Sequence record: MZ436830.1 | Source: Escherichia phage JK1 | Length of the DNA stretch: 64,000 nucleotides | Strand: one strand, 5' to 3' | Shown: one piece after another, positions 50,339 through 54,382 of the stretch | How the letters are laid out: every line of letters begins with the position of its first letter | Numbering within the stretch: position 1 is the first letter of the stretch | The notes under the pieces: generated by a model | The model's database searches: none | What the model was told of the DNA's origin: nothing | What the model saw: the letters and a program-made list of their open reading frames with translations, nothing else | Made by a program: the position numbers and the translations under genes

Positions 50339-50641
50339 CTAAAAGAAACTTCTTTCACAATTTTTTCCACTGAACCAAGCGCTCACTGCTTTCTTAGTCT
50401 CAGGAGCAGTGTTATCCATAAACCATTCAAAGGCAGCCTTTTTATGATTCTGGAGGGCTTCTCGGGCTTTAATCTGTTCACGGTCTATTAACACTAACAT
50501 ATGAGCCTTTCTTGTCACCAAGGGCTTCTTATGATTTTTTGAATACTCCCAATCATTTGTCCATCGCATCGTTGTTGCGAACTGAAATACTGCTTCTTTA
50601 ATTTTAGTTTCGTAAATTTCACGAGCCTTTGAGTATAACAT
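50339..50641 (-). CDS. hypothetical protein
   Basis: start trimmed to ATG with GGAGG SD. Confidence 0.45.
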   Translation of the reverse strand: MLYSKAREIYETKIKEAVFQFATTMRWTNDWEYSKNHKKPLVTRKAHMLVLIDREQIKAREALQNHKKAAFEWFMDNTAPETKKAVSAWFSGKNCERSFF

Positions 50642-50742
50642 CACTACCTCCATTTACCAGTTTAATTCTAATCATCTTTTTGATGGCAGTCCATATAATC
50701 TATTTCTGAACTGCCTTTTTATCTTAGAAGGCCTCTTATGAA

Positions 50743-51711
50743 TTATTTCAGAAGAGTAACCTCAGCGATTTCTTCCCAACCGTTTTTGTCGGTCATAATA
50801 AAGTCAGCAAGATAAAGAGCAGTACGCAGTGAAACATTACGTAAACGATTAACATTGACTTTCATCCATGATAATGCTTTATAAGTTTCTTCATCAGAAA
50901 GACCGCGCTTTTGCATCATGTCAGTTGAAAGAATAACATCTTCAACCCTGACCATAATTTCTTCATTAGTGTGAACACCCAAATCCAAATAAACTGAGCG
51001 GGACACTAATGCTTGTAAATGTGGAGCAAGTTTAGTACCACGGTCTAATTCGCGGTCAATGTCAACGTTTGTGATAAAAACAATCGTTCCTTTAAATTCA
51101 AACTCACGCTCAATGCCTTTTTCTTCTAAGTAAGAAGATGCAGTGCTCCAGCAGACTTTACGGGTCTCTCCAGTGTCCAGAGCAGCTTTTAGAAGATTAA
51201 GAATGTCCATATCAGAGAAAACATCCACATCATCAATCAAAAGGACAGAATTCTCTTCACGATTATTCCAAAGCTGTTCATAAAGACCGATACCGGAGAT
51301 TTTACCGTTAATGCTTTTATATTCAATGTATCCAATATCATTTGCTTTATTTAAAGCTTTATCTAAAGAATACGTTTTACCAATACCTGCCGCACCAGAG
51401 ATAATTAATGAACGAATGTTTCCGTTAATAATACCATTCGTCATCATTCCCATAACATTAAATCTTTTATTAATGCGGGTTTTCATATCTTCATACGATT
51501 CTTTAACTTCTTCAACTTTTACACCATCATATGAAATGTCTGATTTGTAAACCCAAACACCGCGACGTTTACCGTCAATTTCAACAAAAACTTTACCATC
51601 TCCTTGTGCATCTACCGGAGCATTATCTGGGAACCATTCGCCTAAGAGCTCAAAAGTTCCAGAGATTTCTTTACCGAAGTAGATACCCTTATTGATAGTT
51701 ACAGTTTTCAT
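50743..51711 (-). CDS. AAA+/P-loop ATPase
   Basis: Walker A GAAGIGKTYS, Walker B VLLIDDVD. Confidence 0.6.
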   Translation of the reverse strand: MKTVTINKGIYFGKEISGTFELLGEWFPDNAPVDAQGDGKVFVEIDGKRRGVWVYKSDISYDGVKVEEVKESYEDMKTRINKRFNVMGMMTNGIINGNIRSLIISGAAGIGKTYSLDKALNKANDIGYIEYKSINGKISGIGLYEQLWNNREENSVLLIDDVDVFSDMDILNLLKAALDTGETRKVCWSTASSYLEEKGIEREFEFKGTIVFITNVDIDRELDRGTKLAPHLQALVSRSVYLDLGVHTNEEIMVRVEDVILSTDMMQKRGLSDEETYKALSWMKVNVNRLRNVSLRTALYLADFIMTDKNGWEEIAEVTLLK

Positions 51712-51790
51712 TTTATTCTCCAAATCCGTATCAGTTGATAGTTGTATAGTACCATAAAGCTTTATGCTTGTAAACAGTTTTGTGAAAAAT
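51712..51790 (-). repeat. promoter/5'-UTR cassette, copy C
   Basis: near-identical to copy B. Confidence 0.6.
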
Positions 51791-51799
51791 TTTTGAAAT

Positions 51800-51823
51800 A
51801 AAAAAGGGAGCCCGAAGGCTCCC
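51800..51823 (-). terminator. rho-independent terminator between NTase-like gene and ATPase gene
   Basis: GGGAGCC-UUCG-GGCUCCC followed by UUUUUU. Confidence 0.55.
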
Positions 51824-51825
51824 TA

Positions 51826-52839
51826 TCATTTATAATAACTTTGGTGGTTTTCAAGATAGACCTTCTCAAGGAAGTCATCCCAGAAACTCATGTCTACTGT
51901 TTTAGGCATACCATTCTTAGAAGCTTCAGTAGATGCTGCTTCTACTTGATCGACCACATCTTCCAAAAACTCTTGAACTGTTTTAAATGGATGTTTACCC
52001 AACTTCACGTCGAGAATAAATGGAGCATCTTGGAGTGGATAAATCAAGTCGCCAGTTTTGTAAATTTCCAATAGTTGAAGTCCACCACGACAAGCATGAC
52101 TTAGTGCTTTCCAATCAATACCTTCATTAGCTTCGGCTTTACGAGCACGTTCACCATATTCAGCATCTAATTTGTTCAGTGACTGCTTAAGCTCAATAAG
52201 AGAAAGCGTTGTCTGATATTTACGACCCAGCACTGTATAGAACGTTTGTGGACCTGTTTTCTCATGATTATGGAACACCCATTCACAGAATTCGTTTTCT
52301 GGAAGACGATGCTTAATATCTTCAACTTTAGTACGACGCTGCTTAATGGAACCGTCTTCTTGGTAATCAACCCATTGCTCAGGGATTTGATTAACTACTT
52401 TCAATACATCGCGTAATGCAGCCAAACGAGAACCCTTGACACCGTATTTAGAAGCTTGCTTGCGGACATATCCTAAATAGGATTTCATGTTAGTCGTATA
52501 AAAACGAGAACGGTTGTCTTGAATAAACTTCCACACATCAGGCAAATCAGATTTAACCACTAGTTTAGGTGGAGTATGAAGCATATCCAATGCTACAGTT
52601 TCACCATCTGCTGCTAATTTAAAGAAATATTTAAGACTGTATAGTTCATGGTCAATATCATCTTTAGTGTTTTTAGATGATGTATTGTTAGTATTTTTAC
52701 TCATATGCTCTTTAACATTTCCGACAAGAATATCGCGAGCAGGAGGAACAAAGATTTCTTTAAAATCTACATCAGATTCTGGGGTAGAAGTTCCATAAAG
52801 ATGACTACCAAAATAGCTTTTCATTACTGTTTTCATCAT
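51826..52839 (-). CDS. nucleotidyltransferase-fold protein (Pol-beta-like minimal NTase motif)
   Basis: 337 aa; N-terminal FGSHLYGTSTPESDVDF = hG[GS]x10DhD. Confidence 0.5.
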   Translation of the reverse strand: MMKTVMKSYFGSHLYGTSTPESDVDFKEIFVPPARDILVGNVKEHMSKNTNNTSSKNTKDDIDHELYSLKYFFKLAADGETVALDMLHTPPKLVVKSDLPDVWKFIQDNRSRFYTTNMKSYLGYVRKQASKYGVKGSRLAALRDVLKVVNQIPEQWVDYQEDGSIKQRRTKVEDIKHRLPENEFCEWVFHNHEKTGPQTFYTVLGRKYQTTLSLIELKQSLNKLDAEYGERARKAEANEGIDWKALSHACRGGLQLLEIYKTGDLIYPLQDAPFILDVKLGKHPFKTVQEFLEDVVDQVEAASTEASKNGMPKTVDMSFWDDFLEKVYLENHQSYYK

Positions 52840-53297
52840 TCAGCCTTATATTCAATAACAGGACATACTTTAGCTTTACGAGCTTTTAAAAATTCAACGA
52901 TAATCGATTTCTTGGGTTGAATAGGAGGTAAACCTTTATACGCCCTATCAATATTTTCTACGTGTAAAGCATAATCCTTTTTCCATTTATAATCTTTATA
53001 TTTTTCACGCAAATGTGCAGGAATAACAAATGAACCGATAATAAGTAAAACAACCAAAAGCGCAAGTATAAATGCCGATGGAAGAAGAGTCCATAAACTA
53101 CCGAAAATAAGCCAACGTTGTAGGCTTTCTGCACAAATAATTGTTAGCCCTACGAGTATAGCACACCCAAAAATAGAAACGAAAAATGTAGGAATGGCAA
53201 TAGACCAAAAATATGCGCATAGTGTCTTAGGTCGTTGCCATTCATCGTTAAACAATTTGAATAATTTATAGTGCCAAGAGTTTTCATTAATAATCAT
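52836..53297 (-). CDS. membrane protein (3 TM)
   Basis: 153-aa hydrophobic ORF. Confidence 0.5.
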   Translation of the reverse strand: MIINENSWHYKLFKLFNDEWQRPKTLCAYFWSIAIPTFFVSIFGCAILVGLTIICAESLQRWLIFGSLWTLLPSAFILALLVVLLIIGSFVIPAHLREKYKDYKWKKDYALHVENIDRAYKGLPPIQPKKSIIVEFLKARKAKVCPVIEYKAE

Positions 53298-53299
53298 AA

Positions 53300-53821
53300 T
53301 TATCCTTTCATTGAAGGCGTAACGGTTGTTAAATACTTAATCATAGCTTCAGCTTCTGATTTTGATAATGAAATTTCTCCATTGTTTTGACGAATAGAAA
53401 TAAAATCCGGATGACGGTCACCACCAGCTTTTAAAACACACATATAAGTATCAGTTTCACCTTCAATATTTGAAATGATTGAAGCAGTTCCACATGAATG
53501 TGGTTTTTGATAAATCAATGCAGCTTTTCTTCCGCCATTTGACTGCTCATAGGCTTTTAATACATCAAGCAAATCAGTTCTTTTATCAATAGCTAAAATG
53601 TTATTTTCATCTTCAATGTTAAATCCTTCGGATACTTCATAAAGCGTTACCCATAAATCACCAATGTCAATAACAGCATTTACTTTTCCACGGCTTTCAA
53701 GAGTATGACAAATTTTCTTGATTTCGTCATAACTCATTTTAATAATATCATCTCCTTGAATAAGGAAGATGTCATTTTTAAATTCAACACGAATTAAACC
53801 ACTTTCACTTGAAATAAACAT
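53300..53821 (-). CDS. hypothetical protein (paralogue of 53828-54382)
   Basis: C-terminal SKSEAEAMIKYLTTVTP. Confidence 0.5.
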   Translation of the reverse strand: MFISSESGLIRVEFKNDIFLIQGDDIIKMSYDEIKKICHTLESRGKVNAVIDIGDLWVTLYEVSEGFNIEDENNILAIDKRTDLLDVLKAYEQSNGGRKAALIYQKPHSCGTASIISNIEGETDTYMCVLKAGGDRHPDFISIRQNNGEISLSKSEAEAMIKYLTTVTPSMKG

Positions 53822-53827
53822 ATTTCC

Positions 53828-54382
53828 TCACTTTGAAATCATAGTTGGAATAACAGAATCAAGATAAGTCTTTAGTGCAATAGCTTCGTCTTTGGTAAAT
53901 GTGACAATATGTGCTCGAGAATCATCAATTTGGCGAACAAGTACGACATCGCCATCTTCATAAGAAGTCTTGACATCCAAAGTCGTAGTATAATTTGCAG
54001 CTACTGGATTAATAATGCTAGCACCACGATCTTTAGCCCATTGAAGTTTAGCCTTTTCGGGTGTTTCGACTGTTTCAGATTCCAAGAATTCTTTCACCTT
54101 GGCAACGAATGTTGCCCAATTGTTGATAGAAAGACACATAAATTCAGTTTCAATATTACCGCCGTAAAGGCCACGATAAAAACGAACTTGGAGGTCGCCT
54201 GTAATATTAGTTACACCGGTAACTCCTGAGGGAGCATAAGATAAAATCGCAGCCAGTTCCATAGGAAGAATAGTAATACTATCGTCTTCCTGCGTCAGAA
54301 CGTATACATTATCACGTTTTTCGATAACCAGGTCACCGAACAAATCAGTTGTTTCAATTACAGCTTTCATATTATTTACCAA
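53828..54382 (-). CDS. hypothetical protein (paralogue of 53300-53821)
   Basis: C-terminal TKDEAIALKTYLDSVIP. Confidence 0.5.
   Translation of the reverse strand: MVNNMKAVIETTDLFGDLVIEKRDNVYVLTQEDDSITILPMELAAILSYAPSGVTGVTNITGDLQVRFYRGLYGGNIETEFMCLSINNWATFVAKVKEFLESETVETPEKAKLQWAKDRGASIINPVAANYTTTLDVKTSYEDGDVVLVRQIDDSRAHIVTFTKDEAIALKTYLDSVIPTMISK

Follow-up and report, generated by a model that had tools for sequence, protein, structure and literature searches.

Two genes lying side by side on the minus strand of the window (the whole stretch of Escherichia phage JK1 DNA that was analysed, 64,000 nucleotides; sequence record MZ436830.1) were identified as orthologues of nrdC.11 and nrdC.10. 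They are probably two independent early genes of T4-like phages that are adjacent by inherited order, with NrdC.11 being a long form of the RlaP family (PF10127) that most likely restores nucleotides to cleaved tRNA. The features on which the analysis draws are as follows.

51826 to 52839, minus strand: nrdC.11 orthologue (337 aa, beginning MMKTVMKSYFGSHLYGTSTPESDVDF), from the ORF list, PF10127, phrog_388 and the RB32 annotation
52762 to 52812, minus strand: nucleotidyltransferase (NTase) core motif FGSHLYGTSTPESDVDF of NrdC.11 (F10 to F26, residues 10-26) with G11-S12 and the metal-binding D23-x-D25, from alignments and hhalign
52645 to 52662, minus strand: DDIDHE of NrdC.11 (residues 60-65), with D61, D63 and E65 invariant in alignments A2 and A3
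52087 to 52116, minus strand: DWKALSHACR of NrdC.11 (residues 242-251), a signature of the NrdC.11 type in the C-terminal helical domain, invariant in A2 and A3
51795 to 51824, minus strand: intrinsic terminator GGGAGCC-UUCG-GGCUCCC (GC-rich stem of 8 bp, U6), from a scan and folding
51746 to 51774, minus strand: Sigma-70/T4 early-type promoter-like site of nrdC.10 (TTTACA-17-TACTAT, with TG upstream of the -10), from a scan
50743 to 51711, minus strand: nrdC.10 orthologue (322 aa), predicted stand-alone AAA+ ATPase
51373 to 51396, minus strand: Walker A GAAGIGKT of NrdC.10 (residues 106-113), with G106, G109, G111 and K112 invariant in 49 homologues
51223 to 51246, minus strand: Walker B VLLIDDVD of NrdC.10 (residues 156-163), with D160, D161 and D163 invariant in 49 homologues
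50995 to 51081, minus strand: sensor-1 strand VFITN (N215) and SRS motif (S237-R238) of NrdC.10, with N215, S237 and R238 invariant

The window belongs to a Tequatrovirus sharing about 98% identity with phage slur07, with 98.7% DNA identity in this region. The orthologues of the two genes in RB32 are annotated as nrdC.11 and nrdC.10, and the NrdC.11 of the window shares 97% identity with the T2/T4-type protein P0001. Both reading frames named in the original prediction were present in the ORF list where it had placed them, on the minus strand. In the mechanical list, the nrdC.10 frame runs on to a TTG at 51723. As this TTG falls within the GGAG ribosome-binding site, located 8 nt ahead of the ATG at 51711, the ATG is the better start. 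A 32-aa ORF annotated between the two genes in one GenBank record overlaps the terminator and the promoter, and was rejected as spurious.

Both genes are already catalogued T4 ORFs, to which a 2006 paper assigned domains (PMC1524935), and the finding is to that extent largely ordinary. The original prediction was to fall if the proteins proved to be well-characterised T-even proteins of unrelated function. This holds in part, as both are named T-even ORFs with assigned domains. Laboratory growth tolerates the loss of nrdC.11 (PMC9825161), and a record of an nrdC.11 deletion exists (GenBank accession number OL964745.1). Dispensability fits an accessory anti-defence role but is not proof of one.

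NrdC.11 passed the cut-off for PF10127 (44.4 bits against 23; E 2.2e-11), and no other Pfam family reached its cut-off, NTP_transf_2 giving 13.6 bits against 21. The PF10127 match was limited to residues 7-135 (model positions 23-142 of 249), and the same partial match was found in phage and cellular homologues, with 40-56 bits across the subfamily. The protein also matched phrog_388, 'nucleotidyltransferase' (E 4.6e-137). When NrdC.11 was compared with canonical RlaP using hhalign (probability 90.9%, E 1.1e-6), G11-S12, D23-x-D25 and D63 were in register with S/G37-S38, D49-x-D51 and the invariant D88 of canonical RlaP, so that the hG[GS], DxD and third carboxylate elements of a Pol-beta catalytic core are all found in NrdC.11. 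Alignments A2 and A3 show no variation at G11, S12, D23 and D25, and D63, on predicted strand 62-68, is the probable third catalytic Asp. The original prediction of a nucleotidyltransferase motif close to the N-terminus, and of the corresponding fold, thus stands, the fold being of Pol-beta type as indicated by the PF10127 match and the top Foldseek matches in the PDB.

Confident matching by Pfam and hhalign is limited to about the N-terminal 110-135 residues, with hhalign running to ~220 at lower confidence. An HMM built here for canonical RlaP failed to detect NrdC.11 at E<=0.01, and the subfamily is therefore strongly divergent; RlaP membership is predicted from the broader Pfam model and hhalign. 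NrdC.11 represents a divergent 'long' RlaP subfamily. An RlaP preprint of December 2025 already includes T4 NrdC.11 in the PF10127 network, in cluster 5, whereas the enzymes assayed belong to cluster 1a (PMC12776372). Sequence searches of the PDB with single proteins and profiles returned nothing significant for NrdC.11 or NrdC.10, and matches in NCBIfam were all sub-threshold.

In the AlphaFold model of NrdC.11 (pLDDT 84.5), the NTase domain is N-terminal and the C-terminal domain is largely helical, the same architecture as in canonical RlaP. In the crystal structure of PfRlaP, the final C-terminal helix folds back against the NTase domain. The long helical region that had been predicted to follow the core was recovered in part, as residues 214-336 are helical in the model but a beta-rich insert at about residues 156-209 interrupts the region. 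NrdC.11 is ~65 residues longer than canonical RlaP, which matches PF10127 over its full length with 221 bits rather than over an N-terminal segment, and it has C-terminal motifs of its own (QAxKYGVKGSR, EYGERA and DWKAxSHAxR). A pattern search with DWKALSHACR retrieved 116 cellular and 333 viral relatives. The C-terminal domain of NrdC.11, which should hold the substrate, is different from that of the RlaP enzymes that have been assayed.

The second reading frame had been described as a P-loop ATPase of the AAA+ class. GAAGIGKT and VLLIDDVD were found where expected, and this fold call is right. The NrdC.10 model consists of an N-terminal beta domain (residues 1-62), a linker helix, an alpha-beta-alpha nucleotide-binding core (101-243) and a helical lid (249-320), of which core and lid are shared with AAA+ ATPases of the clamp-loader, initiator and MoxR groups (RFC, Cdc6/ORC, DnaA/Hda and NorQ/CbbQ). 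Conservation was assessed in 49 homologues with 33-89% identity. The Walker A and B, sensor-1, arginine finger and sensor-2 arginine positions are conserved, and the lid residues R291 and R296 are invariant. R238 of the SRS motif is a candidate arginine finger resembling that in the SRC motif of clamp loaders, and a homologue from a Pseudomonas phage has SRC at this position. From their positions in the model and general knowledge of AAA+ proteins, we infer sensor-1, arginine finger and sensor-2 roles for N215, R238 and R291/R296, respectively. NrdC.10 fell below the curated Pfam cut-offs (AAA_14, 23.5 against 27; AAA_22, 21.2 against 27; AAA, 16.5 against 21.2) and far below that of NCBIfam Hda (14.7 against 194.8). 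As the sequence is divergent, the AAA+ assignment rests on fold and motifs. The protein nevertheless looks like a catalytically competent stand-alone AAA+ ATPase.

Weak profile matches of NrdC.10 were to Cdc6, RFC4, Hda and phage clamp-loader PHROGs. There is no more than a faint hint of a role in DNA replication or recombination. In environmental phages, homologues of NrdC.10 were found in a UvsX-SSB-UvsY-like-[AAA+]-SF2 helicase cluster. The helicases in this cluster are 59-100% identical, so that it represents essentially one lineage and provides a hint rather than evidence.

The terminator hairpin and promoter that had been placed between the two genes are real. The terminator, whose hairpin and U6 were placed at 51805-51824 by the scan, comes immediately behind the stop codon of nrdC.11. 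Its folding energy is -16.4 kcal/mol (z = -4.25), and none of 200 shuffled sequences folded as well. Behind nrdC.11, the closest relatives (loci L001, L005, L006 and L167) have an equivalent GC stem-UUCG hairpin and T tract, as do L009, L014, L091 and L100. GTTTACA-N17-TAnnAT is found ahead of nrdC.10 in almost all T4-like loci examined, irrespective of which gene is upstream, and nrdC.10 would be transcribed from this early promoter of its own.

The adjacency of nrdC.11 and nrdC.10 is a matter of lineage history without functional meaning. The NTase gene was found <10 kb from the ATPase gene in 30 of 84 loci seeded with the ATPase, all with an ATPase at least 61% identical, and tblastn and HMM searches found it in 0 of ~50 loci where the ATPase is <=60% identical. 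The idea that the two proteins form one machine, in which the ATPase remodels or delivers the substrate of the NTase, draws on the common orientation of the adjacent genes in the window and in those 30 T4-like viral loci, and on their adjacency in Acinetobacter T4-like phages in which the NTase is only 51-54% identical. However, genomes of the Aeromonas type keep both genes 40-110 kb apart (L036/L131, L038/L134 and L039/L138), T4-like loci L093, L096, L107-L109 and L116 include the NTase but no ATPase within 10 kb, and none of 80 cellular loci with an NrdC.11-like gene included an NrdC.10-like ORF. The spacer between the genes also varies from 111 to 2290 bp and holds inserted ORFs, and a terminator and a consistently retained private promoter separate the genes. 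A two-protein machine is therefore highly improbable, and the pairing of ATPase and NTase, confined to close relatives of T4, finds no functional support.

NrdC.11-like proteins of full length (30-53% identity) are encoded in 77 cellular loci, of which 47 had RNA-repair genes as neighbours within 8 kb, the partners being canonical RlaP (36), Pnkp (10), Hen1 (9), RtcB (9) and Ro60 (4). In these RNA-repair loci, the NrdC.11-like gene is usually immediately upstream of canonical RlaP, and typical gene orders are Hen1-Pnkp-[NrdC.11-like]-[RlaP] and RtcB-[NrdC.11-like]-[RlaP]. In phages, genes for a CCA-type NTase, HD-kinase, HD or RtcB were found nearby in 16 of 82 loci seeded with NrdC.11 compared with 1 of 84 seeded with NrdC.10. 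The RNA-repair association typical of RlaP thus characterises the subfamily (47/77 cellular and 16/82 phage loci) but not the window, as HMMs built for this analysis detected no RNA-repair genes in its 64 kb. Canonical RlaP, in cells the almost constant partner of the long form, was found neither in the window nor in any phage nrdC.11 locus examined, suggesting that phage NrdC.11, which is on its own, may work differently.

At genus level, the numbers of records with T4 Pnkp and NrdC.11 are almost equal (Klebsiella, 286/286; Shigella, 83/83; Enterobacter, 56/56), though this may simply mean that both are near-core genes of T4-like phages. NAMPT and NMNAT-Nudix genes were also observed near nrdC.11 in Aeromonas and Vibrio phages. 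A link between these genes and the NTase was considered and judged to be unrelated lineage synteny.

The RlaP enzymes characterised to date are from Pseudomonas fluorescens and P. aeruginosa (PMC12776372). They add one or two NMP to an RNA 3'-OH, prefer Mn2+ and a mimic of cleaved tRNA, do not use DNA or protein, and partly rescue the aminoacylation of tRNA lacking one anticodon-loop nucleotide (PMC12776372). This biochemistry, together with the PF10127/RlaP membership of NrdC.11 and the RNA-repair neighbourhoods of its homologues, supports the suggestion in the original prediction that the protein could modify RNA.

The same prediction also proposed that NrdC.11 tampers with host nucleotide signalling, by making, capping or depleting a second messenger against immunity of the CBASS, Thoeris or Pycsar type. 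The Pol-beta NTase fold is common to cGAS/CD-NTases and to the oligo-dA synthase HalB of Hailong, and HalB chains were among the Foldseek matches to the NrdC.11 model (probability 0.98-0.99 over ~155 columns), but these cover only the shared NTase core (TM 0.25-0.27, 14-16% identity, E>0.01). No PADLOC family was matched and RlaP was the only Pfam family recognised, hence NrdC.11 does not group with the cGAS/CD-NTase signalling enzymes, and the neighbourhoods of its homologues hold RNA-repair rather than effector or sensor genes. As the assayed RlaP enzymes yield RNAs extended at the 3' end by one or two nucleotides and no free oligonucleotide or messenger (PMC12776372), this proposal can hardly be maintained. 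Nucleotidylylation of a protein or small molecule, in the manner of an MNT-type antitoxin AMPylating a host HEPN toxin or of a KNTase-type modifier of antibiotics, is very unlikely. The best Foldseek matches in the PDB, all to Pol-beta NTases, were indeed kanamycin and aminoglycoside nucleotidyltransferases (best E 7.7e-3, probability 0.89), with an MNT antitoxin further down the list, and NCBIfam gave a weak match to MntA (E 0.058, 13 bits). However, none of these matches reaches significance and each is confined to the generic core, and the leading structural matches to that core, namely kanamycin nucleotidyltransferase (1kny), ANT(4'), AadA and HalB (9dbj), have E>=7.7e-3, TM<=0.32 and 9-16% identity, so that no specific structural relative can be named. 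Pfam points to RlaP and not to NTP_transf_2, E. coli proteins were not used by the assayed RlaP enzymes (PMC12776372), and no HEPN or toxin gene recurs in the neighbour clusters examined. Neither context nor family supports aminoglycosides or the oligomerisation of dATP as the business of NrdC.11.

A different task at RNA 3' ends, either the restoration of tRNA 3'-CCA after exonuclease damage or the tailing of host or phage RNAs to alter their stability, is unlikely, though less so than the preceding readings. Species labelled by the assayed RlaP enzymes also include full-length tRNA, rRNA-sized RNA and single-stranded RNA, with little preference among NTPs (PMC12776372), and in two loci (L139 and L145) distant phage homologues of NrdC.11 are encoded 4 kb from genes for a CCA-type tRNA nucleotidyltransferase. 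Against this, those enzymes favour the 5' half of a nicked tRNA over the tRNA 3' end (PMC12776372), the strongest genomic partners, Pnkp/Hen1, RtcB and HD-kinase, heal or seal RNA that is broken internally, and a dedicated CCA enzyme next to the NrdC.11 homologue suggests that the two have non-redundant functions where both occur.

In the preferred reading, restoration of cleaved tRNA, NrdC.11 would act mainly on the 5' half of a tRNA after a host anticodon nuclease, for example RloC, has cut and trimmed the anticodon loop. NrdC.11 would put nucleotides back on the cleaved tRNA before repair by T4 Pnkp and RNA ligase 1 (Rnl1), which presumably are encoded elsewhere in T4-type genomes, and healing by phage Pnkp followed by sealing by RNA ligase 1 would then regenerate the full-length tRNA. 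An RNA 3'-end activity of NrdC.11, a tRNA target and cooperation with Pnkp/Rnl1 are all inferred from the family and its genomic context.

The T4 tRNA repair system, in which Pnkp (PseT) acts with RNA ligase 1, counters the PrrC anticodon nuclease. The purpose proposed for NrdC.11 is the same, namely the restoration of host tRNA cut by a defence nuclease, Pnkp shows the same genus-level distribution in T4-like phages, and the 5'-phosphate ligases of the T4 system accept the 3'-OH product that an RlaP enzyme would make. Pnkp and Rnl1 mend and join ends but have no means of supplying a lost nucleotide, the step that NrdC.11 would add. However, pseT and rnlA are encoded a long way from nrdC.11, and their link with it is a deduction. 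In the lesion made by RloC the wobble nucleotide is excised, and this was predicted in 2008 to defy phage repair enzymes (PMC2610378).

A bolder version of this scheme is possible but on balance doubtful. Here, NrdC.11 would be the missing third enzyme of T4 tRNA repair, working without a template and defeating RloC-type nucleases. The long form in cells would form an obligate, translationally coupled pair with canonical RlaP in Pnkp/Hen1 and RtcB operons, and phages would have kept the long subunit only.

T4 is the phage in which RNA repair was discovered. If NrdC.11 restores excised anticodon nucleotides, this would settle the question raised in 2008 of whether RloC-type nucleases truly escape phage tRNA repair. 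The tandem cassette of long and canonical RlaP genes in bacterial repair operons points to a more complex enzymology in this family than the single-enzyme picture on which tests have so far been based.

Two co-oriented minus-strand ORFs, with a terminator hairpin and a promoter between them, had been predicted between 50,743 and 52,839. Both ORFs were present as described, and both signals were recovered by scanning.

Features of the nrdC.11-nrdC.10 region
50335-50307, early-type promoter-like site after nrdC.9, TTTACA-17-TATTAT with TG
50339-50653 (-), nrdC.9 orthologue, Pfam DUF7203 (57 bits, cut-off 27)
50743-51711 (-), nrdC.10, AAA+ ATPase, 322 aa; Walker motifs GAAGIGKT (residues 106-113) and VLLIDDVD (residues 156-163)
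51774-51746, promoter-like site before nrdC.10, TTTACA-17-TACTAT with upstream TG, ~30 nt past the hairpin
51805-51824, terminator hairpin directly after the nrdC.11 stop codon; 8-bp GC-rich stem, UUCG loop, U6 tail
51826-52839 (-), nrdC.11, nucleotidyltransferase (NTase), 337 aa, N-terminus MMKTVMKSYFGSHLYGTSTPESDVDF
52762-52812 (-), GS...DxD motif of NrdC.11, residues 10-26
52836-53297 (-), predicted membrane protein, 153 aa, phrog_944, in the position of the T4 homing endonuclease gene mobD
53300-53821 and 53828-54382, both (-), mobD.1-type ORFs, adjacent paralogues (29% identity, E 2e-8)

The nrdC.10 start was placed further out, at a TTG at 51723, in the mechanical ORF list, but this TTG falls within the Shine-Dalgarno sequence (GGAG) located 8 nt ahead of the ATG of the original prediction, and the ATG was therefore retained. 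The hairpin (-16.4 kcal/mol, z = -4.25) was not equalled by any of 200 shuffled sequences, and a terminator after nrdC.11 was seen in many T4-like phages. A 32-aa ORF annotated in the spacer in one GenBank record is probably spurious, and it overlaps both the terminator and the promoter. As a further early-type promoter-like site follows nrdC.9, the region appears to be composed of single-gene early cassettes. The stop codon of the 153-aa ORF, whose equivalent in phage RB32 is annotated 'replaces mobD', overlaps the nrdC.11 start (ATGA), suggesting that the two may be translationally coupled, and the two mobD.1-type ORFs are, judged by sequence, a tandem duplication.

The 3-kb region shared 98.7% identity with Escherichia phage slur07; 475 phage records, mostly Tequatrovirus, matched 80% or more of the region. 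In RB32, which retains the T4 gene names, the orthologues are annotated nrdC.11 ('nucleotidyltransferase') and nrdC.10. Downstream of them come nrdC.9, nrdC.8 and so forth, and upstream lie mobD.1-like ORFs, rI and tk. nrdC.11 and nrdC.10 are known genes of a known phage type, with a published family assignment; their domain content (AAA for nrdC.10, COG3541 nucleotidyltransferase for nrdC.11) was published in 2006 (PMC1524935). The nrdC.x series, including both genes, is labelled 'thioredoxin' in many GenBank and UniRef entries, an error propagated from the unrelated gene name nrdC, and one public entry names NrdC.11 'HNH homing endonuclease'.

The proposed pairing of ATPase and NTase proved to be coincidental. 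An NTase gene was located within 10 kb of the ATPase gene in 30 of 84 ATPase-seeded loci, all with an ATPase at least 61% identical to that in the window, and in none of the ~50 more distant ones (tblastn and HMM searches); the reciprocal NTase-seeded search gave the same picture. The genes lie tens of kilobases apart in four genomes (locus pairs L036/L131, L038/L134, L039/L138 and L040/L139), several T4-like phages carry nrdC.11 with no nrdC.10 nearby, and no NrdC.10-like ORF was found in 80 cellular NrdC.11-like loci. Spacer length ranges from 111 to 2290 bp among T4-like phages, often with inserted small ORFs, and nrdC.10 retains its own early-type promoter (GTTTACA-N17-TAnnAT) throughout, whatever the spacer. 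As linkage is confined to close relatives, the promoter is separate and the spacer variable, the adjacency represents gene order inherited within one lineage. The spacer (window 51712-51825) was also seen to be an insertion hot spot relative to loci L005-L035 and L088-L137.

NrdC.10 matched only AAA-type Pfam models, all below threshold, and phrog_1250, labelled 'unknown function'. Its confident structural model (pLDDT 90.6) begins with a beta domain (residues 1-62) and continues through a linker helix into an alpha-beta-alpha core and then a helical lid. In 49 homologues no variation was seen in Walker A, Walker B, N215, S237-R238 (SRS in the window protein, SRC in a Pseudomonas phage homologue) or R291/R296, and from this conservation NrdC.10 looks catalytically competent. 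The family includes 917 clusters (E<=1e-30), all of stand-alone proteins of 250-470 aa, and the named members are from phages. In one environmental phage lineage (loci L060, L061, L066, L070 and L077, and related loci) the gene is flanked by UvsX-like, SSB and UvsY-like genes on one side and by a gene for an SF2 helicase on the other, and in Vibrio phage K364 (L004:7989-9002) it lies between dUTPase and helicase genes, beside clamp and clamp-loader genes in a replication block. This context, mostly from one lineage, hints weakly at a function in DNA transactions (replication or recombination).

Profile searching placed the NTase in PF10127 (RlaP, RNA repair pathway DNA polymerase beta family), at 44.4 bits against a gathering threshold of 23 and over residues 7-135; phrog_388 was also matched. 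G11, S12, D23, D25, D61, D63 and E65, and the C-terminal motifs QAxKYGVKGSR, EYGERA and DWKAxSHAxR, were invariant among phage homologues with identities as low as 30%. Profile-profile comparison with canonical RlaP (probability 90.9%, E 1.1e-6) brought GS, DxD and D63 into register with its invariant residues, D63 opposite D88, and D63, on predicted strand 62-68, is likely the third catalytic aspartate. The AlphaFold model (pLDDT 84.5) bore out the predicted NTase fold, the best PDB matches all being Pol-beta NTases (kanamycin NTase, ANT(4'), Hailong HalB and AadA), though with E values of 7.7e-3 at best this search found no close solved structure. The long helical region expected after the NTase motif was partly recovered, as helices are predicted in the model but a beta-rich insert (~residues 156-209) interrupts them.

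One genome per prokaryotic species was scanned using conserved motifs of the NrdC.11 subfamily, and the 80 cellular loci recovered, many on chromosome-sized contigs, encode full-length relatives with 29-53% identity. Neighbouring genes were clustered and the clusters identified using Pfam; 47 of 77 loci had RNA-repair genes no more than 8 kb away.

Neighbours of cellular NrdC.11-like genes
Canonical ~270-aa RlaP (221 bits, full-length PF10127), 36 loci
Pnkp (kinase-phosphatase-ligase), 10 loci
Hen1, 9 loci
RtcB, 9 loci
Ro60/TROVE, 4 loci

Typical orders are Hen1-Pnkp-[NrdC.11-like]-[RlaP], RtcB-[NrdC.11-like]-[RlaP] and Ro60-RtcB-...-[NrdC.11-like]-[RlaP]-Hen1-...-Pnkp. Cellular and phage long-form members alike match PF10127 at only 40-56 bits, over approximately the N-terminal 135 residues, and NrdC.11 represents a divergent 'long' RlaP subfamily found in RNA-repair operons.

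In bacteria, long RlaP (~320 aa) is followed by canonical RlaP (~270 aa) inside Hen1-Pnkp or RtcB/Ro60 operons (L186:8004-9746, L198:8001-9802, L222:7992-9802, L215:2956-4895 and ~30 more cellular loci), and the canonical start usually overlaps the long-form stop codon by 4 nt. This tandem suggests a two-subunit or two-step enzyme, a point that single-enzyme biochemistry leaves aside.

Distant NrdC.11 homologues in phages are encoded 2-4 kb away from genes for CCA-type tRNA nucleotidyltransferase, HD-plus-kinase end-healing proteins or RtcB, and such neighbours were found in 16 of 82 NrdC.11-seeded loci compared with 1 of 84 NrdC.10-seeded loci. Counted by genus, phage records with T4 Pnkp and those with NrdC.11 were nearly equal in number (Klebsiella 286/286, Shigella 83/83, Enterobacter 56/56, Aeromonas 77/75, Acinetobacter 70/69), though this may reflect no more than a near-core status of both genes in T4-like phages. 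In Aeromonas and Vibrio phages, NAD-salvage genes (a NAMPT-type phosphoribosyltransferase and an NMNAT-Nudix fusion) lie ~5 kb or less from nrdC.11 (L131:13701-15179, L086:11661-12755 and related loci), probably reflecting lineage synteny.

Two Pseudomonas RlaP enzymes, characterised in a December 2025 preprint, add 1-2 NMPs (or dNMPs) to an RNA 3'-OH, best with Mn2+, favour the 5' half of a nicked-tRNA mimic, are inactive on DNA and protein, and partially return aminoacylation to tRNA short of one anticodon-loop nucleotide (PMC12776372). A jumbo-phage review noted that the distribution of RlaP mirrors that of RNA ligases, and predicted that RlaP replaces nucleotides removed by nucleases such as RloC (PMC7824862). 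NrdC.11 would most plausibly act on the 5' half of a tRNA that a host anticodon nuclease has cleaved and trimmed, once Pnkp has taken off the 2',3'-cyclic phosphate and ahead of sealing by Rnl1; the T4 5'-phosphate ligases accept the 3'-OH product. However, the cellular long form comes with a canonical RlaP partner, which was found neither in the window nor in any phage locus, phages having the long form only, and the 64-kb window has neither Pnkp nor Rnl1. The C-terminal domain also differs from that of the assayed enzymes, which belong to cluster 1a of the PF10127 similarity network, while 'T4NrdC.11' is in cluster 5 (PMC12776372).

The role in host nucleotide signalling suggested in the original prediction is unsupported, as NrdC.11 gave no PADLOC or CD-NTase-type match and its likeness to HalB is confined to the NTase core. 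Modification of a protein or antibiotic, for which weak generic fold matches are the sole basis, is a weak alternative. A different action on RNA 3' ends, for instance tailing or the repair of CCA, is possible at a fairly low probability.

A genome-reduction study found that nrdC.11 is not needed for laboratory growth (PMC9825161), and T4 record OL964745.1 (159,752 bp), a laboratory deletion strain in which only residues 299-337 are left, agrees that it is dispensable. Such dispensability would fit an accessory role in counter-defence. The idea that the T4 RNA-repair toolkit may include NrdC.11 as a third, nucleotide-restoring component is well grounded.
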